Source: Ostreococcus lucimarinus (Eukaryota). From it: DNA of 64,000 nucleotides. Shown piece after piece: positions 19,965 to 31,248 of the stretch. The stretch's first letter is position 1, and each line of letters opens with the position of its first letter. Both the position numbers and the translations under genes were made by a program. The notes under the pieces are model-generated. The model was not told the DNA's origin, did not search any database, and worked only from the letters and a program-made list of their open reading frames with translations. The stretch is taken from NCBI GenBank assembly GCA_000092065.1, contig CP000583.1. The stretch is one strand, 5' to 3'.

Positions 19965-20236
19965 CGGTCCGCGCGCCGTCGTCGAGCGCGTCGCGCGCGC
20001 GTCGCGCGCTGGGGCGACCGCGGCGACCGACCGCGAATCCGCGCGGATCCGCGGCGCGCGAAAAACCCGCGTGTGCGCCGCCGTCGACGGCGACGGTTGC
20101 CACACGCGCGCGCGACGAGGCGCGACGACGCGCGAGCGACGACGCGCGGGCGAACGCGATGACGGGCGCGATCGATGCGATGACGCGAGCGACGGCGCGC
20201 GCGGTGACGCCGACGACGGGAAGCGCGACGCGAAGG

Positions 20237-21439
20237 ATGCGATCGGGACGCGCGATGCGCTTTTTGAATCGACCGCGCGACGACGCGGGCGCGAACGAGA
20301 CGCGAGGAGGGCGCGCGGTGGCGCGCGCGGGCGCGAGACCGGGCGCGGGGAATCGGTTGTATAACTTTTCGGCGGGACCGGCGACGCTGCCGTTGGACGT
20401 GCTCGAGGAGATTCAACGGGACTTGGTCGATTATAAGGGCAGCGGGATGAGCGTGCTGGAGATGTCGCATCGAGGGAAGGATTACATGGCGATCGCGGAG
20501 AAGGCGGAGAAGGATCTGCGAGAGTTGGTTGGAATTCCTGATAACTATAAGGTGCTGTTTTTGCAAGGCGGGGCGTCGACGATGATGGCGTCTAACTGCC
20601 ATAACTTGGCGGCGGCGACGGACAGCGCGGATTTCGTCGTCACCGGGGCGTGGAGCGTCAAGGCGCAAAAAGAAGGGGCGAAGATGCTCGCGAAGGCGAA
20701 TGTGATCGCGTCGTCTAAGGATCAGTCGTTCACGACGATTCCGGACGTTAAGGACTGGAAATTCACCGAAGGATCCAAGTTTGTCCACATCTGCTCCAAC
20801 GAAACCATCGGCGGCGTCGAGTTCAAGGAAGTCCCGGACGTGGGCAACCGCGTGCTCGTCGCGGACATGTCTTCCAACTACTTGTCCAAGCCGATTGAAG
20901 TTGAAAAGTACGGTATCATTTACGGTGGCGTGCAAAAGAACATCGGTCCGGCGGGCATGGGTATCGCCATCGTTCGCGAAGATTTGATGGGCAACACTCG
21001 CGCGGATACCCCGTCCATGTTCGATTACAAGCTCATGGCTGACAACGACTCCATGTACAACACCCCGCCGTGCTTTACGTGGTACGTCTCTGGTCTCGTC
21101 TTCGCCAAGCTTCTCAAGGATGGTGGTCTCAAGGCGATGGAGCAGCGCAACATCGAAAAGGCGAATGTTTTGTACGGCGCCATCGACGGGAGCGGCGGCT
21201 ACTACGTCTCCCCGGTTGACACCAAGTACCGTTCCTTGATGAACGTCCCTTTCACCTTGGCAGGAGGTGAAGAATTGGAAAAGAAGTTCCTCGCCGAAGC
21301 CAAGGCTGAGGGCTTCGAGGCGCTCAAGGGTCACCGCTCCGTTGGAGGCGCGCGCGCGTCCATTTACAACGCCATGCCCAAGGAAGGCGTCGAAGCGCTC
21401 GTGTCCTTCATGAAGGATTTCCAAGCTCGCAACGCGTGA
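20237..21439 (+). CDS. PSAT: phosphoserine aminotransferase (SerC, class V aminotransferase)
   Basis: The NFSAGPATLPLDVLEEIQRDLVDYKGSGMSVLEMSHRGKDYMAIAEKAEKDLRELVGIPDNYKVLFLQGGAS... core is diagnostic. Track ORF begins 20159. The N-terminal approximately 60 aa are GC-rich and transit-peptide-like. ATGs at 20159, 20237 and 20255 are all in frame, so the start is uncertain. Confidence 0.9.
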   Translation: MRSGRAMRFLNRPRDDAGANETRGGRAVARAGARPGAGNRLYNFSAGPATLPLDVLEEIQRDLVDYKGSGMSVLEMSHRGKDYMAIAEKAEKDLRELVGIPDNYKVLFLQGGASTMMASNCHNLAAATDSADFVVTGAWSVKAQKEGAKMLAKANVIASSKDQSFTTIPDVKDWKFTEGSKFVHICSNETIGGVEFKEVPDVGNRVLVADMSSNYLSKPIEVEKYGIIYGGVQKNIGPAGMGIAIVREDLMGNTRADTPSMFDYKLMADNDSMYNTPPCFTWYVSGLVFAKLLKDGGLKAMEQRNIEKANVLYGAIDGSGGYYVSPVDTKYRSLMNVPFTLAGGEELEKKFLAEAKAEGFEALKGHRSVGGARASIYNAMPKEGVEALVSFMKDFQARNA

Positions 21440-21471
21440 TTTACGAAGGATGAAATTTTGCTACAGATTAT

Positions 21472-22587
21472 CTAATACAACGCATCTACTTTAGTGCCAC
21501 GCACCCACCACGGTTCGAACGCTCGAATGATCGTGCCGCTCGGGCCGAGCGCGCAGTCGCGCTTGATGTGCATCTCTGAGGCTTGCAAACCGAGATATTC
21601 GCTCGGTTTCTGCACCCTCACCTCGCCATCGTCGCCCGGAGCGCGGTACAGCGTCTCACCTACCAAAGGAGCACTCAAAGCCGCGAATTGCGCGCGAATT
21701 TGATGCGTTCGTCCGGTTAAGAGTTCCACCTTTGTCTCCCATCGCGCCGGGGCGATGTTTTCGCTCTTCAACACTCGCAAAATACAGCGCTTCGGCCCAC
21801 TCACGCCTCCCCGCTCGCCACCACCGCGTTCTGCCGATCGTTCTATTTCACCATCGATGTCGTCGGTGTCGACCTTCGTCATGATCATCTTTCGCGGACC
21901 CTCGGTCGCCGGCTCGGCGTCGTGGATGTGAACGCCGCGAGGCACGGCGTTCTCCGTCAGCACGCGATACACCTTGGTGACGCTCCTGTCCGCCAACATA
22001 TCACCGAACTCCTTCGCAAAGGCACTCGTCGTACCGAGCACTAAAACCCCTTCCGTGCCGACGTCCAAGCGATGAATCGGCTTTAATGTTCCCTCCTTCA
22101 GACCCGCGGCGCGTTCGAGCATCGCCAGACACGATTCCTTGACGTTATCGACCGTCGGCACCACGCTCACGCCCGCCGGTTTATGCGCACAAACGTACCC
22201 CTCACCCACTTTCAACACGCACGCCTTCCAATCGACCGCGAACGCCGCCGGAAACCGCTTCGGTTGCACGTGAACGCGAAGATAGTTGCCCGCCCGCAGC
22301 GGCGCATCCGCGTCGCGAGGCGACAACCGCCTCGCGCGCGCCGTTCTCGGCACCCCTCTCAGTTCCCTCGGCGGCTGCGCCGTCGCGAACCACACCGCAC
22401 CGATGTCCAACAACTCTTCGGCGTACGTCTCGTCCACGCCCTCGTCCCCGAGCGTCTTCGCGAGGTATTTCGTCACCGTCAGCGCCGTCCCGGTCCCGCC
22501 GTCGTCGTCCACGACCAGGTGCGCCACTTTCGCCGGCAGAGGCTCGGCGAGAGGAAACAACCGCAGCGCGCACGCGCGCGCCGACAT
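21472..22587 (-). CDS. RluA-family pseudouridine synthase (bacterial-type rRNA/tRNA pseudouridine synthase)
   Basis: Catalytic motif IHRLDVGTEGVLVLGTT. ATG at 22587 (MSARACALRLFPLAEPLPAKV...; cat at 22585-22587 checked). I counted 371 aa to the stop at 21472. Confidence 0.8.
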   Translation of the reverse strand: MSARACALRLFPLAEPLPAKVAHLVVDDDGGTGTALTVTKYLAKTLGDEGVDETYAEELLDIGAVWFATAQPPRELRGVPRTARARRLSPRDADAPLRAGNYLRVHVQPKRFPAAFAVDWKACVLKVGEGYVCAHKPAGVSVVPTVDNVKESCLAMLERAAGLKEGTLKPIHRLDVGTEGVLVLGTTSAFAKEFGDMLADRSVTKVYRVLTENAVPRGVHIHDAEPATEGPRKMIMTKVDTDDIDGEIERSAERGGGERGGVSGPKRCILRVLKSENIAPARWETKVELLTGRTHQIRAQFAALSAPLVGETLYRAPGDDGEVRVQKPSEYLGLQASEMHIKRDCALGPSGTIIRAFEPWWVRGTKVDALY

Positions 22588-22746
22588 CGTCGCCCTCGAC
22601 GCGCGTCGCAAAGCCACCGTCGCGCGTCGCAAGGCCAGCGCGATGCGCATGGGACAAAAAGTGCTTTTCCGCAAATGTTCGCGCGCGCGAATGACGCGCT
22701 GACGCGAGCGCCGCCGGCGCGAAAGCGCGTCGAACGATGCGTGACG
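22588..22746. promoter_or_regulatory. 159-bp bidirectional promoter between the RluA-type pseudouridine synthase (-) and the RsmE methyltransferase (+)
   Basis: Start codons at 22587 (minus) and 22747 (plus) face outward. Confidence 0.55.
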
Positions 22747-23580
22747 ATGCGTAATCGCATTCTCTTCGAGCGCGCCGAGATCGACGCCCGAACGCGGACG
22801 GTGACGCTGCGCGCGGACGACGCGCGCGCGACGCACGCGCGAGAGGTGCTGCGAAGCGACGTCGGCGACCACGTGCGCGCGGGAACGATCGACGTCGGCG
22901 CGTGCGAGGCGACGATCGCGACGATGGATGATGATGAAATCGTGCTGAAGCTCGGAGACGACGCGCGCGGACGCGGGAGGCCGGAGATCGACTTGTTGCT
23001 CGCGACGCCGCGGCCTAAAGTTTTGAGGCGGCTGTGGGCGCCGCTCGCGTCGCTGGGCCTCGGTCGTGTCGTGCTGGCGAACGCGCAAAAGGTGGAGCGA
23101 TATTACTTTGATAGTAAAGCGTTGGACGCAGAGACGATTCGTGGGGAGATATTGCGCGGTTTGGAGCAGGCGGGGGATTTTTTGGTGCCGCAAGTGGGCG
23201 TGGCGATGCGGTTGCCGCCGGTCGTGGACCGGTTGAAGGGCGCTTTGGGGAATTCGAGCGTCACGAATGGGTTCGAGTGGTTGTTGGATGGACCACGTGA
23301 GCTCGGTTGGGATGAGTTCGACGCGGCCGATGTGCGCTTGCTGGCGCATCCAGGGGATTCTGGGACGAGCGTGGCGGAAGCGTTGGAGGGCGTCGACGCG
23401 CGGCGCTCGCGCGTGCTCATCGCCGTCGGACCCGAGGGCGGATGGACGGATTATGAGCTCGATTTATTCGAGGGCGCCGGGTTCAAGCGCGTTGGCCTAG
23501 GAACGAGAACATTTACCACGGACGTGGCGTGTATCTCGCTCGTGAGCGCGGTTCGAGAGCGGTTGCAGTCGTGGTCGTGA
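22747..23580 (+). CDS. RsmE-family 16S rRNA (uracil-N3)-methyltransferase (DUF558)
   Basis: MRNRILFERAEIDARTRTVTLRADDARATHAREVLR...RVLIAVGPEGGWTDYELDLFEGAGFKRVGLGTRTFTTDVACISLVSAV is the RsmE architecture. ATG at 22747 and TGA at 23578-23580. The upstream part of track ORF 22183.. is antisense to the neighbouring gene. Confidence 0.8.
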   Translation: MRNRILFERAEIDARTRTVTLRADDARATHAREVLRSDVGDHVRAGTIDVGACEATIATMDDDEIVLKLGDDARGRGRPEIDLLLATPRPKVLRRLWAPLASLGLGRVVLANAQKVERYYFDSKALDAETIRGEILRGLEQAGDFLVPQVGVAMRLPPVVDRLKGALGNSSVTNGFEWLLDGPRELGWDEFDAADVRLLAHPGDSGTSVAEALEGVDARRSRVLIAVGPEGGWTDYELDLFEGAGFKRVGLGTRTFTTDVACISLVSAVRERLQSWS

Positions 23581-23624
23581 AATGACTAGAATTGACGACT
23601 ACAAATTAGATAGCGCACTTAGGC

Positions 23625-24380
23625 TTAGGACATCGAAAAGACGATGTACAGCGTGTAAAGCATCATGCAAGGATACGTCACGATCATGCGTTTGCCCTCC
23701 GACTGCGGCATCGCCTGTATCAACCCCACGCTCGCCTTTCTCGAGCTCCACGTCACGCAGAGCACCGCGAGCGCCTTGCTCAACATCCCAGTTTTCGAAG
23801 GTAAAAACAGCACGATCCCACTGTACCCCACCACGGGCAGCAGCGCGTAGCCTAAAATACTCCCGCACCGGTTCAACCCGATCCCTTCCCCTCCGCCGAT
23901 GATTTGGTTCAACAACCAGTACATCCCGAGCGACGCGAGCGTGCTCCAACCCAAAATGTACCCAAAGTGCAACTTCCCCGCCAGTAAGTTACACGCGCCC
24001 ATGACGAGACAAAACAACAGCGGTCCCGCGAGATCTTCATCCGTGCTATCCTCGACCCTGAACGGATGCATCACACCCATCGTCCGACGATAAATCTGCT
24101 TCGGATCCACGCCGAGTTCCTCGAGCAACGGCACCTCGTCCTCGACGTGCGCGTACGACCCTCCCACGTCGCCGTCGCGCGCCCCGAACCCGAACCCACC
24201 GCCCTGGTGTCCCGAGCCGTGTCCACCACCCCCCCCGTACCCGTGCGAGCCCGAACTCGTCGCTCGCGGCGCGTACGCGTCGTAGTTCGGGTACGCCTGC
24301 GCGCGATTAAAATCCATAAACTGCATGTTCGCGTTCGCGCCCTGCGCGCCCTGCGGCATCGGTCGCGGTATGTCCGCCAT
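23625..24380 (-). CDS. Yip1-domain Rab-GTPase-interacting membrane protein (YIPF5/Yip1-like)
   Basis: Gly-rich N-terminus followed by DEVPLLEELGVDPKQIYRRTMGVMHPFR...DLAGPLLFCLVMGACNLLAGKLHFGYILGWSTLASLGMYWLLN...VTYPCMMLYTLYIVF, which aligns with YIPF5 along its length. ATG at 24380 (MADIPRPMPQG...) checked. Confidence 0.8.
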   Translation of the reverse strand: MADIPRPMPQGAQGANANMQFMDFNRAQAYPNYDAYAPRATSSGSHGYGGGGGHGSGHQGGGFGFGARDGDVGGSYAHVEDEVPLLEELGVDPKQIYRRTMGVMHPFRVEDSTDEDLAGPLLFCLVMGACNLLAGKLHFGYILGWSTLASLGMYWLLNQIIGGGEGIGLNRCGSILGYALLPVVGYSGIVLFLPSKTGMLSKALAVLCVTWSSRKASVGLIQAMPQSEGKRMIVTYPCMMLYTLYIVFSMS

Positions 24381-24587
24381 ATCTCGCCGTTCCGTCGCGC
24401 GCGCGTCCGCGTCGCCCGAGACGCGCGTCGCGGTCGCCCGTCGCGCGTCGCGGTGCGTCGCCAACGGGACGCGGCGCGCGCGTCTCGGGCGACGCGAGTC
24501 TCACACACGGACCACGACGCCCGCGACCGCGCGCGGTCTCCTCGCGACCCGCGCGCGCGTTCTCTTCGCGACGCGCGCGACGCGAAC

Positions 24588-25243
24588 ATGGTGCGTGACC
24601 TCGAGCGAGCGACGAAAGACGACGCGAGCGCGAACGACGCGCGCGCCGGTGGCGCGCGACGGCCGGGACGCGCGTCGGGCGGACGCGCGCGGACGGAACG
24701 ACCGCGGACGAGACGCGGCGATCGCGACGACGCGCGCGCGCGTTCGAGGGCGGTCGCGCGCGATGCGATCGTCGCGCGCGCGGTCGGCGCGCGCGGATGA
24801 AGGGTGGATATCGTGAATTCGACGCCGGCGCGGCGCGCGGCGGCGACGGCGGCGGTGGGAGGGCGACGGGCGGGCGATGGGGGGGCGCGGCGCAAGCCCT
24901 AGAGTCGACGACGGCGCGAACGCGACGCGCGGAGGACTGACCGAGACGTTTTATCGACGCAGCCGTCCAACAAGACTTTCAAGGTGAAGAAGATTTTGGG
25001 GAAGAAGCAAAAGCAAAACCGCCCGCTTCCCCAATGGATCCGCATGCGCACGGGTAACACCATTCGGTACGTACGCGTTTAGGTTTTTTCGCGCGACGAG
25101 CGCCGACGAGTCGCGCGAACGACGCGATCGATGACGCGATTTTGACGACGACGACGCGCGAGTACTGACGATGATGATGTGTTCGTACGCGCAGCTACAA
25201 CGCGAAGCGTCGACACTGGAGACGCACCAAGCTCAACTTGTAA
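24588..25243 (+). CDS. RPL39: 60S ribosomal protein L39e, three exons: 24588..24590 (ATG only), 24963..25066, 25195..25243
   Basis: ATG is followed directly by donor GTGCGT at 24591. Acceptor ...cgacgcag precedes 24963. Exon 2 encodes [35 protein letters not shown] plus 2 nt, with donor GTACGT at 25067. Acceptor gcgcag precedes 25195. Exon 3 encodes (R)[15 protein letters not shown] followed by stop TAA at 25241-25243. The spliced 51-aa product matches eL39 nearly residue for residue. No track ORF covers it. Confidence 0.85.
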
Positions 25244-25591
25244 GCGAGCGCGGTGGGATTTGTGTAGACGAACGAGCAGAGTCGTGTTCGACGTCGGCGC
25301 TCTCGAGCGGAATAGCGTTCTGTAGTGGAACTCGCGCGAGGGCACGAACGGAGATGAGACGAACATCGCACGTAACTTAGCGATTTAAGAAGCAGAATTA
25401 GTTCTTCCTCATCGCGTCGCGCGACGCCGACGCGTCCGCCCGCCCGCGCCGTCGTCTCGTCCCCCGAACGCGCCCTCGCGCGCGCGACGACGTCACGACG
25501 CGCGCGCGACCGCACTCCCATCACTCGCAGTATTATTTCGTATTATTTCAATCTTCATCCATCGCGATCCCGCTTCGCGCGCGATCTCGTC

Positions 25592-25924
25592 TCAACCGTC
25601 GGCGCCTTCGCTCGCGCATCCGTCCCCCTCCCGCGTCGACGTCGCGTCCCCCTCGCGCGCGCCTCGCTCGTCCGGTTCCCTCGCGCTGTCCTCCGTCGTC
25701 CCCTCCCCCATCGCGCGCCCCTCGCTCCTCGTCGCCGCCGTCCCGCCCGCGTCCCGCCGCCGCGCCTCCTCCGCGCTCTTCCGCATCGCCCAATCCGCGC
25801 TGTCGAAGTGTTTCACGTCCGTCGCGATCAACCGCGGTTTCGGTCGCAGATCGTCGCCGTACTTCGCCCTGAACGCGCGCTCCGCCTCCGTCGCCGCCGT
25901 CGCCGCCGTCGCCTCCCGCGCCAT
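25592..25924 (-). CDS. endosulfine/ARPP-19-like small protein (putative Greatwall-kinase substrate / PP2A-B55 inhibitor)
   Basis: In-frame segment of track ORF 25592..28027. ATG at 25924 (MAREATAATAATEAERAFRAKYGDDLRPKPRLIATDVKHFDSADWAMRK...). It parallels the ENSA core EAKLKAKYPSLGQKP...KGQKYFDSGDYNM, including the FDSGDY-type phospho-site motif. The tail is acidic, Gly-rich and disordered. Confidence 0.5.
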   Translation of the reverse strand: MAREATAATAATEAERAFRAKYGDDLRPKPRLIATDVKHFDSADWAMRKSAEEARRRDAGGTAATRSEGRAMGEGTTEDSAREPDERGAREGDATSTREGDGCASEGADG

Positions 25925-26701
25925 GTCGCGCGTCGCGCGATGCGCGCGATCGCGCGACGCGCGCGCGGCGCCATCCGACGTGGCGGGGCGCGCGCGACGG
26001 ATTCGCGCCGCGCGACTGTTTGCGCATACGACAGAGGGTTCGTCTCGAGTCGCGAACGGTCGACGCACGCGCTCGCGCCGGCGCGCGCGAAACGACGAAT
26101 CGTGACTCGTGACTCGATAAACGACGAATCGTGACTCACGACTCGATGGCCGGCGTCCATACGTACCCCCCGACTCTTGAGTCACGATCGGTCGTTTCAC
26201 AACCCTCGACACGAGGCTCGAATCCGCCGGCGTCGACGTCCGCGCGCGACGCGCGACCGACCGCGCGCGCGACGCGAGATCGCGGCGCGTTCGCGCGACG
26301 AGCGACGCGCTCGAGCGCGTCGACGTCGGCGTCGCGCGCCGAGCGAAAGCGCCGCGCGCGCGCGCGAACGCGGCGACGCGACGGACGCGAATCATCGATC
26401 GCGGGCGTCGATCGCGCGATTCGTCGCGGCGATCGATCGACCGATCGCGGGCGCGGACGCGCGCGAAGACGCGCGGGAGGGCGCACGCGCGGGCGCGGGA
26501 CGCGGGATGCGCGCGGCGGTGACGCGGGCGACGCCGGGGGGGCGCGCGGGCGAGGCGAGCGGGCGGGGGGGAGGGAGGGCGCGCGCGGGGACGCGCGGGA
26601 CGCGGGCGACGCGGGGACGCGCGCGATTCGTGGCGACGCGCACGAGCGGTAGCGTGGGGGACGCGGAAGCGCAGGAGGGAGATGAGCCGGACGTGAACGA
26701 T

Positions 26702-28432
26702 ATGTTCGCGGCGGCGGCGAATGAAATGCAGGCGTCGGAACGATTGGAGCGGGACATTCCGGAGTCGATGACGGTGAGGAAGTCGGCGCCGAGGACGATG
26801 GCGTCGTTCGACGGCGCGGACGAGGATGATGAGGGGAACACTGTGTTGGAAACCGTTCTCGATGTCGCGCGCGATCCGGAGAAGGTCATCAAGGGCGTTG
26901 CCGCGGCGGTGACGTTGGGGACGGCGTACACGGTGGCGAGCGAGCCGGCCTTGGCCGCGGGAGGGGCGGCGGCGGCGCTCCTCGTCATCAAGGTTCTCGA
27001 AGCGTTGGCGAAGGAGGGAGATCAAACTCCGGCTGAATTCCAAGCGTCGCTTAAGAAGGATATCAAACCGTTGATGGAAAAGTTGCCGAAAGATTTCGAC
27101 GCGGAGGCGCTCACGAAGAAGGCGTCGGAGACCGGGGCGAAACTCTTTGAAAGGGCGCAGTCGGTGACTGATTCTTTCGATGAGGTGTTTGGTGGGTTGA
27201 ACTTTGGTGGCGACGCAGACGATGAAGCCGAAGCCGCGGCTTCCAAGTTGCTTGAAATCCGTAGGGCGGACGAGAAGGCTGCGTTGGAAGCGCAAGCCGC
27301 CGAAGACGCCGCGGCGTCGTTCGCCGAAACCGAGGCCAAGGCCAAGGCTGACGCTGCCGCCGCCGCCGCCGCCGCCGCCGCTGAAGCCAAGGCGAAGGCT
27401 GACGCCGAAGCCGCGAAGATTGCCGCCGAAGCCAAGGCGAAGGCTGACGCCGAAGCCAAGGCGAAGGCTGACGCCGAAGCCGCGAAGATTGCCGCCGAAG
27501 CCAAGGCGAAGGCTGATGCCGAAGCCAAGGCGAAGGCTGATGCCGAAGCCAAGGCGAAGGCTGACGCCGAAGCCGCGAAGATTGCCGCCGAAGCCAAGGC
27601 GAAGGCTGACGCCGAAGCCAAGGCGAAGGCTGACGCCGAAGCCAAGGCGAAGGCTGACGCCGAAGCCGCGAAGATTGCCGCCGAAGCCAAGGCGAAGGCT
27701 GATGCCGAAGCCAAGGCGAAGGCTGACGCCGAAGCCAAGGCGAAGGCTGACGCCGAAGCCGCGAAGATTGCCGCCGAAGCCAAGGCGAAGGCTGACGCCG
27801 AAGCCGCGAAGATTGCTGCTGCCAAGGCGAAGGCTGACGCCGAAGCCAAGGCGAAGGCTGATGCCGAAGCTGCGAAGGTTGCCGCTGCCAAGGCAAAGGC
27901 TGATGCCGACGCCGAAGTTAAGGCGAAACGCGCGGCTGAAGCTGAAGCCAAGAAGCGCTCGCAAGAGGAAGCCGAACAGAAGGTTGCGCAACAAGTGATG
28001 GCGGCACAGAAGGTGGCGAAGAAACAAGAAGAGTGGGAGAACTCTTTGCTAAAATTGCAGTACAGCGAGCAGATCATTGAAGATATTCGCGTCGCGGACG
28101 CAAACGCGGTTGAACGCGCGCATGCGCGTCGCCTCGGATTGGATTTCACCCCAGAAGTGGCAAAACAAATGCCAGGAACCGAGTACTCTTGGGGCTCGCA
28201 GACGAACGTCAAACCTGGTGAAGTGATCAGCGCTTTGAACTCCGCCGATGAAGGTTTTGCGTCGTCGAAGAACCGCGCTCGTTCGGCGCTCGGATTGCCG
28301 CAGAAAGACGACCAGCCGGTGGCGGAGAAGCAAGAGCCGTGGTGGGCGACTTTCATAAGAGTTTTCGTGAACATGTTGATCGCTGCCGCCATCGCTGCGT
28401 TCACGTACTTGGTCGTTCGTAGCATGCTGTAA
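26702..28432 (+). CDS. tail-anchored coiled-coil protein with ([11 protein letters not shown] / AEAAKIAA)n repeats and a C-terminal TM helix
   Basis: Coding-like part of track ORF 26177..28432, from ATG 26702 (MFAAAANEMQASERLERDIPESM...). The repeat block is about 27340-27900 (27-nt period with 24-nt variants). The C-terminus WWATFIRVFVNMLIAAAIAAFTYLVVRSML is a terminal TM helix. The 5' 525 nt of the ORF are GC-rich and probably UTR. Confidence 0.6.
   Translation: MFAAAANEMQASERLERDIPESMTVRKSAPRTMASFDGADEDDEGNTVLETVLDVARDPEKVIKGVAAAVTLGTAYTVASEPALAAGGAAAALLVIKVLEALAKEGDQTPAEFQASLKKDIKPLMEKLPKDFDAEALTKKASETGAKLFERAQSVTDSFDEVFGGLNFGGDADDEAEAAASKLLEIRRADEKAALEAQAAEDAAASFAETEAKAKADAAAAAAAAAAEAKAKADAEAAKIAAEAKAKADAEAKAKADAEAAKIAAEAKAKADAEAKAKADAEAKAKADAEAAKIAAEAKAKADAEAKAKADAEAKAKADAEAAKIAAEAKAKADAEAKAKADAEAKAKADAEAAKIAAEAKAKADAEAAKIAAAKAKADAEAKAKADAEAAKVAAAKAKADADAEVKAKRAAEAEAKKRSQEEAEQKVAQQVMAAQKVAKKQEEWENSLLKLQYSEQIIEDIRVADANAVERAHARRLGLDFTPEVAKQMPGTEYSWGSQTNVKPGEVISALNSADEGFASSKNRARSALGLPQKDDQPVAEKQEPWWATFIRVFVNMLIAAAIAAFTYLVVRSML
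27340..27900 (+). repeat. coding tandem repeat array (27-nt units gccgaagccaaggcgaaggctgacgcc, interspersed with 24-nt gccgaagccgcgaagattgccgcc units)
   Basis: Direct repeats visible in the sequence. Antisense track ORFs 25592..28027 (upper part), 27022..28479, 27111..27896 and 27204..27998 are artefacts of the repeat. Confidence 0.85.
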
Positions 28433-28491
28433 ATTTCGCGCATAAGGACACATTTAATGAGCAAACTTGATCTTATCATTACACTTCTCGT

Positions 28492-31248
28492 TTAGGACGC
28501 TTTCAGTAGAACCTCGAGGATGGAGTCGGGCGCGATTCTTGCCACGTCGTCGTCGTCCGCAATCAAGGTGTCCGGTACCTTGAAAATCTGAAGCACTTGC
28601 ACGGGCTTAACTCTGAATTTGAGCGCAATCTCTTCTCGTAGTTCAAGGTACGTCTGTCGACCGAAAGGAATCTCGCGATAGTAACGCTCATTTGGAACCT
28701 TCACCTTGAGAGACACCGCTTGGTCGATAGGAAGTCCGATGGCTTGCTTGTCGACCTTGGCACGCATTCGGCGCGTATTATCAATGATTGTCGCCGCGTC
28801 TTCTGGCGTTAGCACCGCCGCTTCTTGCAATTCGGTGAAAAATCTAATCTTCAACGTCTCTGGACGAAGCTTTGCCGGTACTGATGCTCGTCTGGTTATC
28901 GTGAGATGCACATCGAGCAGAAATCCATGCTTGACGTCGTACACGAGTTCAATGATGGGGAGGTATCCTTCCCAACGCGTGATATCTTCCTCTTGCCACC
29001 TGACGCGCTGAATTGTGGTATCACCATTCGCGACACCATCTTCGCCAATGATAGCTTTGAACGCCAAATACTCGTCGAGAGCGTCGAGATTCATTGGTTT
29101 GTTCACCTTGATGCGATATGAAATTGCTCCCGCAGACTTGTCATCGATCGCCCTCGTTAAATAATACACGCCAAACGCAACCCCGACCCACGTACACATG
29201 CTAAGAATGAACCAGACCAGTGGTTTGTTCATAAACGGATCAACAATGTACGATCGAGCCCACTCTGTGTGCACGACGCTCCATTCGCCAGTGAGTCTGT
29301 CGAGCAACTCAAACGCAAGCATACCCGCGAAAATGAACTGCATGGTGTATAAGCTTGTCCCTTGTTTGCTGTTCGACTTGATTTGCACCAGCATCTCTCC
29401 ACTACTACCGCGAATGTCTTCGTGCACGCGCAACGCCTGCGACTCGGCTACTGTGTCCACCATGATTCGTAACCCATCGATTTCTTTGCGCGCCGCCTCG
29501 AGGATTTTCCGCATATCCGCCACACGAACCGTGAGATCAGCGAGCATAACTTTCAGGCCAAGGATTTCATAAAGTCTTCTTCCGCTTTCAGTATCTGGAA
29601 TGGTGTGAATACTCTCGTCTTGTTCGATTGATTCCTTCAAGTACACCAGGATTTCCTCGAGCAAAATGATGTCGCGCGAAGTCTCAGCGAGAGTGTGACG
29701 AATATTCGCAACACTGTTCGGATCTTCCTCGTGATTTTTAATCATCTGCCGGACGAGCTTGAGAATGTCATCCGTCATAAATATTCTGTTGAATACGTTG
29801 TGCACGAAGACATCTCTGGACATGATGGACAGGTACATCAACATCACTGGTTCCTGCGCCTTGGCGTTTGGGCCCGTGAGTAAGATGCCGTGAGAACCGG
29901 TGATGACGACATCACGGTCGCTCAAATCGTACGCTTCGTGCGTATCACCTAATACTTGTCTTAACTCGTTTTCGAACGCGTCCTTATCCATGTACATGTC
30001 CGCAGCCTGTTGCGGGGCAATGCGCTCGGCGATGATGATGTTAATTTTGTCTCGTCGTTCGGCGTTACCGAGGAAAACAGTTTGGAGCAAATCACGCTGA
30101 TGATCGCTCAATAGCGAATCTAAAATCGTACTTGAGTCCATATGCACGTCCACGAGTAAGCGCGCCAAGTTATCGAGCGAGATATTGTCCAAAATTCGAT
30201 CCATGACTGATTCAATCATCAAACCGTGCACAATGGTGCCGTCTTTGCGCAAGTGAATGCCAAAGTGCTCGACTTGCACGATACCATCGTCCTCAGGGAA
30301 GTGTACTTGAGCCTCAATGTTGGTGAACGTCGTCATATCATGGTCCAAAATGCTTACATTTGTCAAACCAGCTGGGATCTCACACGTTGCGTTGGTCGAG
30401 TCCGTATCCACCGTGGGGGTGAAGAATCCGCCCTGACATCTGTCGTTTGATCCCAGCTTCATGTTCAACTTGACGATTTGATTCACTCCGAACGGAATCC
30501 ATTCACCAACTAAGATTGTCACGTTGGATACCGTCATGACCTCGTCCAAATCATCGCGAATCGTGCTGTCTTTAGCCGCGCTCTCCGACGCTCGGTGCGA
30601 ATTTGACGACGTCACGGGACCACCTACACGCCGTAAAGCCAACGGAAGATACGGTGATACGACGTACGACACGTCTTCTACATCAGTTATTGTCGATTCG
30701 AACGAAATCGTTTCATTTCTCAAGTAAAAGGTCTCATCTTCCCACACCACTTGCAAAAGTTTCCCGTCGGCGACGCACAGCTCGTCCACCAACTGTCGAT
30801 CCTCTTCGCTCATGCGCTTACTCACGAGCGCCAACCCAGCGGCGGTGATCTGAAACGCCAAAACGCTCTGATGTTCCGCACTGCTCAGCCTCAACCCACG
30901 AATGAGCTCTCCCTCGATCAAATCGTCCAAATCGTCCACCCCCTCCTGCGACACGTTCAAGTACAAGCGCGTATTCTTCACCACCGTCGACTCCGGCGCG
31001 TAATCGTACTCGAACACCTTCTGCACGATCCCCTCATAAATCAACACCAACAGCGGCAACTTCCGCACCCACACCTCCTTCTCGTACGCCGACTGCGCGC
31101 GGTGCGAATACTTCGACACCAAGTACAACAGCTTCAGGTGGCTCACCGTCCAGTAATCGTCGTGAAACTCTCGACGCACTCTCGGCGTCAACCGCGCCGT
31201 CTCCGCCCTCGCGTCGACCAACGGTTTATCCTCGTACCCACTCCCCAT
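28492..31248 (-). CDS. conserved hypothetical 918-aa protein with two C-proximal TM helices and a C-terminal ubiquitin/PB1-like fold
   Basis: Track ORF 28492..31530. The coding-like body starts at ATG 31248 (MGSGYEDKPLVDARAETARLTPRVRREFHDDYWTVSHLKLLYLV...); alternative ATG at 31338. TM pair: MQFIFAGMLAFELL...LVWFILSMCTWVGVAFGVYYL. The C-terminus ...LELREEIALKFRVKPVQVLQIFKVPDTLIADDDDVARIAPDSILEVLLKAS is beta-grasp-like. Family not recognised. Confidence 0.55.
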   Translation of the reverse strand: MGSGYEDKPLVDARAETARLTPRVRREFHDDYWTVSHLKLLYLVSKYSHRAQSAYEKEVWVRKLPLLVLIYEGIVQKVFEYDYAPESTVVKNTRLYLNVSQEGVDDLDDLIEGELIRGLRLSSAEHQSVLAFQITAAGLALVSKRMSEEDRQLVDELCVADGKLLQVVWEDETFYLRNETISFESTITDVEDVSYVVSPYLPLALRRVGGPVTSSNSHRASESAAKDSTIRDDLDEVMTVSNVTILVGEWIPFGVNQIVKLNMKLGSNDRCQGGFFTPTVDTDSTNATCEIPAGLTNVSILDHDMTTFTNIEAQVHFPEDDGIVQVEHFGIHLRKDGTIVHGLMIESVMDRILDNISLDNLARLLVDVHMDSSTILDSLLSDHQRDLLQTVFLGNAERRDKINIIIAERIAPQQAADMYMDKDAFENELRQVLGDTHEAYDLSDRDVVITGSHGILLTGPNAKAQEPVMLMYLSIMSRDVFVHNVFNRIFMTDDILKLVRQMIKNHEEDPNSVANIRHTLAETSRDIILLEEILVYLKESIEQDESIHTIPDTESGRRLYEILGLKVMLADLTVRVADMRKILEAARKEIDGLRIMVDTVAESQALRVHEDIRGSSGEMLVQIKSNSKQGTSLYTMQFIFAGMLAFELLDRLTGEWSVVHTEWARSYIVDPFMNKPLVWFILSMCTWVGVAFGVYYLTRAIDDKSAGAISYRIKVNKPMNLDALDEYLAFKAIIGEDGVANGDTTIQRVRWQEEDITRWEGYLPIIELVYDVKHGFLLDVHLTITRRASVPAKLRPETLKIRFFTELQEAAVLTPEDAATIIDNTRRMRAKVDKQAIGLPIDQAVSLKVKVPNERYYREIPFGRQTYLELREEIALKFRVKPVQVLQIFKVPDTLIADDDDVARIAPDSILEVLLKAS

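Follow-up and report, generated by a model that had tools for sequence, protein, structure and literature searches.

Does the interval 24588-25243 of the window, by which we mean the whole 64-kb stretch of Ostreococcus lucimarinus DNA that was analysed, contain a working gene for the small ribosomal protein eL39, and does the coding part of its first exon consist of the start codon alone? The earlier note on this DNA had proposed such a gene, in three exons on the plus strand, and all of its coordinates (24588-24590, 24963-25066 and 25195-25243) were confirmed. In this model the coding part of exon 1 is the ATG at 24588-24590 (5′ UTR lying further upstream), which directly abuts the donor GTGCGT of a phase 0 intron of 372 nt (intron 1, 24591-24962), ended by the acceptor ...ACGCAG|CCGTCC at 24962/24963. 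Exon 2 (24963-25066, 104 nt) holds codons 2-35 and two bases of codon 36 (PSNKTF...GNTIR), and is followed by a phase 2 intron of 128 nt (intron 2, 25067-25194) that opens with the donor GTACGT from 25067 and closes with the acceptor ...GCGCAG|CTACAAC at 25194/25195. The coding part of exon 3 (25195-25243) completes codon 36 with its third base and continues through codons 37-51 to the TAA stop of the eL39 frame, which ends at 25243. Joined, the exons give a 156-nt CDS that translates to 51 amino acids, identical to the product first proposed. A brute-force search through all combinations of GT donors and AG acceptors in 24588-25243 found a single one that yields the eL39 protein, the ATG-only first exon being part of this unique solution, and tblastn places eL39 residues 2-37 in exon 2 at 100% identity. 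We conclude, with a probability of about 96%, that the locus is the O. lucimarinus cytosolic eL39 (RPL39) gene, with two introns, the first of them directly after the start codon.

Identification of the 51-residue product as eL39, also claimed in the earlier note, is secured far above chance by a Pfam match and by end-to-end alignment with solved structures. The protein scores 77.3 bits against Pfam PF00832 (Ribosomal_L39; cut-off 21.6 bits, E=6.8e-22), and the match extends over all 42 profile positions (1-42). A PDB search returned 58 eL39 sequences at E<=1e-3, and in the best of them, which come from ribosome structures of fungi, plants and animals, residues 1-51 are collinear with residues 1-51 of our product without a gap (E=2e-24, about 1e-24). 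Set beside the eL39 proteins of solved ribosomes (PDB 7r81_n1, 7oyc_l1, 7olc_Ll), the O. lucimarinus protein has the equal length of 51 aa and shows only ordinary lineage-level substitutions, and the printed alignments show that the conserved stretches QKQNRP.PQWIR and RYN.KRRHWR are all kept. Nine lysines, eight arginines and neither aspartate nor glutamate among the 51 residues make it strongly basic, a composition that suits rRNA binding, and judging from its sequence the protein would line the polypeptide exit tunnel of the 60S subunit.

GenBank and RefSeq already list the same 51-aa sequence for O. lucimarinus CCE9901 under the name ‘Cytosolic 80S ribosomal protein L39’ (ABO94982.1 / XP_001416689.1), a product with no detectable difference from ours, and given the uniqueness of the GT-AG model the exon joins of the deposited RPL39 model are presumably the same as those described here. 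The gene, its product and its type of structure are thus all on record, and nothing in them is new. An EST study of O. lucimarinus recovered 20 of 107 ribosomal-protein models, the shortest being among those missing (PMC2367439), and the deposited eL39 model is for this reason probably homology-based.

Both introns are canonical U2-type GT-AG introns by their signals. The definition used required GT at the donor, AG at the acceptor and, 18-40 nt before the latter, a CTRAY branch site, and each intron has a GT donor (GTGCGT in intron 1, GTACGT in intron 2), a CAG acceptor and between them an ACTGAC branch site, the distance from its A to the acceptor being 22 nt in intron 1 and 26 nt in intron 2. 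The GC content of intron 1 is 76%, whereas the window as a whole has 59%, the eL39 exons 54% and intron 2 59%. Read-through from the ATG at 24588 ends at a TGA after 70 codons, the exon 2 frame is closed upstream by a TAG at 24900 with no ATG between, and read-through into intron 2 stops after four codons (..RYVRV and stop). Since these intron stops block read-through and there is no alternative ATG, splicing is needed for eL39. In the expression route that we propose, eL39 would be transcribed on the plus strand from a short region also serving the divergent Yip1 gene, the phase 0 start-codon intron of 372 nt and the 128-nt phase 2 intron that splits codon 36 would be removed from the pre-mRNA, and splicing would thereby create the 156-nt reading frame from which the very basic 51-residue eL39 would be made. 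Splicing and expression at this exact O. lucimarinus locus are predicted.

A different structure would be one in which a codon within exon 2, such as GTG 24984, initiates translation and the ATG-only exon does not exist, or in which the start codon is brought by a different upstream exon. The case for it is that a 3-nt coding exon is undetectable by similarity alone, and that a 32-aa GTG-started ORF (24984-25082) covers most of exon 2; even so, we regard either variant as very improbable. In the alignments with solved eL39 proteins, the residues encoded before GTG 24984 (PSNKTFK, residues 2-8) pair with the N-terminal ends, and further upstream the frame runs into the TAG at 24900 before any ATG is reached. 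The ATG at 24588 is the sole one in 24465-24600, and so in the upstream 120 nt, and it sits directly on a consensus donor. The same junction recurs as ATG|GTRCGT in O. tauri and Bathycoccus and as ATG|GTAAAA in Neocallimastix, and two intron-less contigs (L001 and L002, described below) read ATG-CCG-TCC, i.e. the ATG joined to codons 2 and 3 of the proposed frame.

A first exon that codes for nothing other than the initiator methionine is not in itself exceptional. Phase 0 introns right after the start codon are described from vertebrates, arthropods, fungi and plants, and the proteins whose genes host them are short, lysine-rich and conserved, with ribosomal proteins strongly over-represented (Nielsen & Wernersson 2006, PMC1626468); the statement of the earlier note that ATG-only first exons are known for ribosomal-protein genes is correct on this authority. 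The O. lucimarinus eL39 gene falls squarely within the class so described, as it has a phase 0 intron between codons 1 and 2 (ATG|GTGCGT...CAG|CCG) and encodes a ribosomal protein of 51 aa, nine of them lysine, and it is a textbook member of the start-codon intron class. L39 and start codons find no mention in Yoshihama et al. 2006 (PMC1386722).

The organisation seen in the window is identical in O. tauri, where the RPL39 gene (CEF97178.1 / XP_022838527.1; CAID01000003.2; L004 3001-3667) consists of three exons, its introns match in position and phase, and its junctions read ATG|GTGCGT, ...CACGCAG|CCGTCC, ATTCG|GTACGT and ...GCGCAG|CTACAAC, in agreement with what had been proposed for O. lucimarinus. 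Intron 2 is 128 nt long in both species, whereas intron 1 is 383 nt at 67% GC in O. tauri and 372 nt at 76% GC in O. lucimarinus. Between O. tauri and the window the exons are 94-96% identical (exon 2 94%, exon 3 96%) and the introns 63-68% (intron 1 63%), compared with 51-54% for shuffled controls, and beyond its splice signals intron 1 shows little conservation. In both Ostreococcus species the ACTGAC branch sites precede the acceptors by 22-28 nt. Six codons differ between the two coding sequences, five of them synonymously, the sixth giving V9I. The flanks match as well (pseudouridine (PseudoU) synthase, RsmE-like methyltransferase, Yip1 and endosulfine), and the order Yip1 (minus), eL39 (plus), endosulfine (minus) is kept in both O. 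tauri and Bathycoccus.

In the same neighbourhood of Bathycoccus prasinos, the eL39 gene likewise has an ATG-only first exon (ATG|GTACGT...AACAG|CCGTCG), and differs in being without the second intron. An eL39 gene of Neocallimastix, an anaerobic neocallimastigomycete fungus, also breaks directly after its start codon (L011 501-1146, ATG|GTAAAA...TATAG|CCTTCC); its first intron is 397 nt long with 15% GC, and its second is placed differently from that of Ostreococcus. Being common to Ostreococcus, Bathycoccus and Neocallimastix, the eL39 start-codon intron is widespread. The occurrence of the ATG-only exon in both the Mamiellales and an anaerobic fungus fits either an old intron position or one that has been recurrently favoured.

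These comparisons also bear on whether the locus might be an unexpressed or decaying pseudogene, the working eL39 gene being elsewhere, a view that we consider hardly credible. The earlier note had named a different eL39 copy elsewhere, with this locus unexpressed, as a finding that would overturn its reading, and the check for one, carried out by tblastn within the 64-kb window, showed this one eL39-like locus only. The examined region is 64 kb of the genome, which leaves room for a copy outside it, and scans of JGI metagenome contigs for spliced junctions came back empty, with zero matches both for the full spliced CDS and for the two spliced junctions together with a free middle. Against a pseudogene, neither the reading frame nor any splice signal is damaged, and the introns are retained, so that the locus is not a processed copy. 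Its position between Yip1 and endosulfine is that of the annotated eL39 gene in O. tauri and Bathycoccus, and the substitutions relative to O. tauri are five synonymous to one conservative. The protein cluster, moreover, has a single O. lucimarinus eL39 entry. We therefore retain the reading of the locus as the functional eL39 gene.

Transcript-like evidence for the predicted joins is provided by L001 (935 nt) and L002 (912 nt), short JGI contigs that encode the exact eL39 protein and belong to two separate samples, IMG 3300059571 and 3300037682. In both of them the 156-nt eL39 frame is uninterrupted, with the joins ATG-CCGTCC and ATTCG-CTACAA at the predicted junctions. Compared with the window they are 98% identical in exon 2 and 87% in exon 3 plus 3′ UTR, and both introns are skipped exactly. 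Their coding sequence has four synonymous nucleotide differences from the window, which indicates that they come from a related Ostreococcus lineage. They start 11-18 nt before the eL39 ATG and end 17-38 nt past the start codon of the convergent endosulfine gene, and as these ends resemble merged convergent transcripts the contigs are, on the strength of their sequence, probably cDNA.

If L001 and L002 were instead genomic DNA of a relative that has lost both introns, they would be uninformative on splicing. This we think unlikely, though it carries real weight, as the samples are labelled merely as JGI assemblies, and cDNA-mediated conversion can remove several introns together, in one step, in compact genomes. 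The contig ends, coming from two samples, nonetheless fit merged convergent transcripts, which have been reported among O. lucimarinus ESTs (PMC2367439), and both contigs are absent from the JGI metagenome-contig collection that was scanned. Even if they were genomic, the exact absence of both segments would still mark the intron borders, and L001 and L002, probably cDNA, fit the three-exon model.

How the gene appears to automated gene finding is a separate matter. The earlier note had stated that no ORF covers the locus, and taken literally this does not hold, as several long ORFs overlap the interval: 24066-24800 and 24325-24816 on the plus strand, and 24071-24895, 25079-25366 and 25195-25524 on the minus strand. 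None of these has a Pfam match, and they were rejected as real genes, being Arg/Ala-rich artefacts of high GC. The substance of the statement stands, since the gene is indeed invisible to plain ORF scanning, the sole ORF in the eL39 frame being the 32-aa GTG-started fragment of exon 2 at 24984-25082. The description of the gene as ‘hidden’ likewise applies to ORF scanning and to prokaryote-style callers, which miss it, but not to the eukaryotic annotation, in which it is already present (XP_001416689.1). The broader proposal that short GC-rich introns in this genome hide small essential genes is illustrated by this one gene but is not thereby demonstrated, and intron 1, at 372 nt, is not short.

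Prokaryote-style calls on metagenome contigs of the same species provide a practical example, as they give a spurious 205-aa ORF on the plus strand and miss eL39. This ORF is found in L013, L015-L019, L021 and L022 (e.g. L013 3938-4555), corresponds to approximately 24370-24987 in the window, and runs from the eL39 5′ region through intron 1 and 25 nt into exon 2. In the window itself a TGA, created by a private T at 24814, interrupts this ORF. That ORF scanning and prokaryote-style callers both miss an essential gene means that splice-aware annotation is needed for picoeukaryote metagenome sequence. The scientific weight of the locus is otherwise small, as eL39 is an ordinary housekeeping gene, and the lesson is one of method.

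Over 1.2 kb, nine genomic contigs from the environment align with the window gap-free at 99.4-99.8% identity, and from these near-identical contigs it follows that O. lucimarinus is common in marine metagenomes. Of the 1211 nt compared across these nine genomes, 14 sites vary, and none of them falls in the eL39 exons, where approximately 1.8 would be expected, a difference that with so few sites is not significant on its own.

Intron 1 is unusually long and GC-rich for this compact genome, and we considered whether it might contain something other than splice signals. Rfam returned zero matches in 20000-30000 at gathering thresholds and zero in 24400-25400 at E<=1, and intron 1 folds no better than its dinucleotide shuffles (z=+0.9), so that an intron-hosted snoRNA or other structured RNA was rejected. 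Repeat matches in intron 1 are merely low-complexity, CG-rich and partial, and there is accordingly no sign of a mobile ‘introner’-type element within the locus. In intron 2, the 14-nt sequence TTAGGTTTTTTCGC (25079-25092), 13 nt past the donor, is identical in O. tauri amid otherwise diverged intron, and is unique within the 64-kb window. Some yeast ribosomal-protein genes have their splicing under feedback control of their product. By analogy intron 1 or TTAGGTTTTTTCGC could serve as a regulatory device, through intron-mediated enhancement or through feedback of the ribosomal protein on splicing, a role that we think improbable.

The 207 bp upstream of the eL39 ATG (24381-24587) separate it from the ATG at 24380 of a gene on the minus strand encoding a Yip1-domain protein (23625-24380, Pfam E=5.5e-7). 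This interval, common to Yip1 and eL39, presumably acts as a divergent promoter and 5′-UTR region. The Yip1 gene is complete in the window and encodes 251 aa, or 244 aa if translation begins at the following ATG. Its O. lucimarinus entry in RefSeq, XP_001416976.1, is a 173-aa partial sequence, identical to the window protein at 173/173 residues, and this public model looks truncated.

Within the shared interval lies a perfect 20-nt inverted repeat, CGCGTCGCCCGAGACGCGCG / CGCGCGTCTCGGGCGACGCG, at 24408-24427 and 24477-24496 with a 49-nt spacer. Its 20 nt compare with a maximum of 17 nt for inverted repeats in 200 dinucleotide shuffles, and its conservation does not extend to O. tauri, whose longest inverted repeat measures 12 nt. 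The repeat could serve both genes as a promoter element, or form a hairpin in the 5′ UTR of either Yip1 or eL39. A pyrimidine tract, TTCTCTTC, at 24560-24567, 21 nt upstream of the eL39 ATG, has the counterpart TCTCTTT in O. tauri and is reminiscent, by analogy, of the oligopyrimidine start sites of ribosomal-protein mRNAs; its first position, 24560, is T in the window and G in 9/9 environmental contigs. Further downstream, 26177-28432 on the plus strand is a 751-aa ORF with a long run of near-perfect Ala/Lys/Glu/Asp repeats and a C-terminal hydrophobic segment, and the long opposite-strand ORF over the same interval is probably a repeat artefact.
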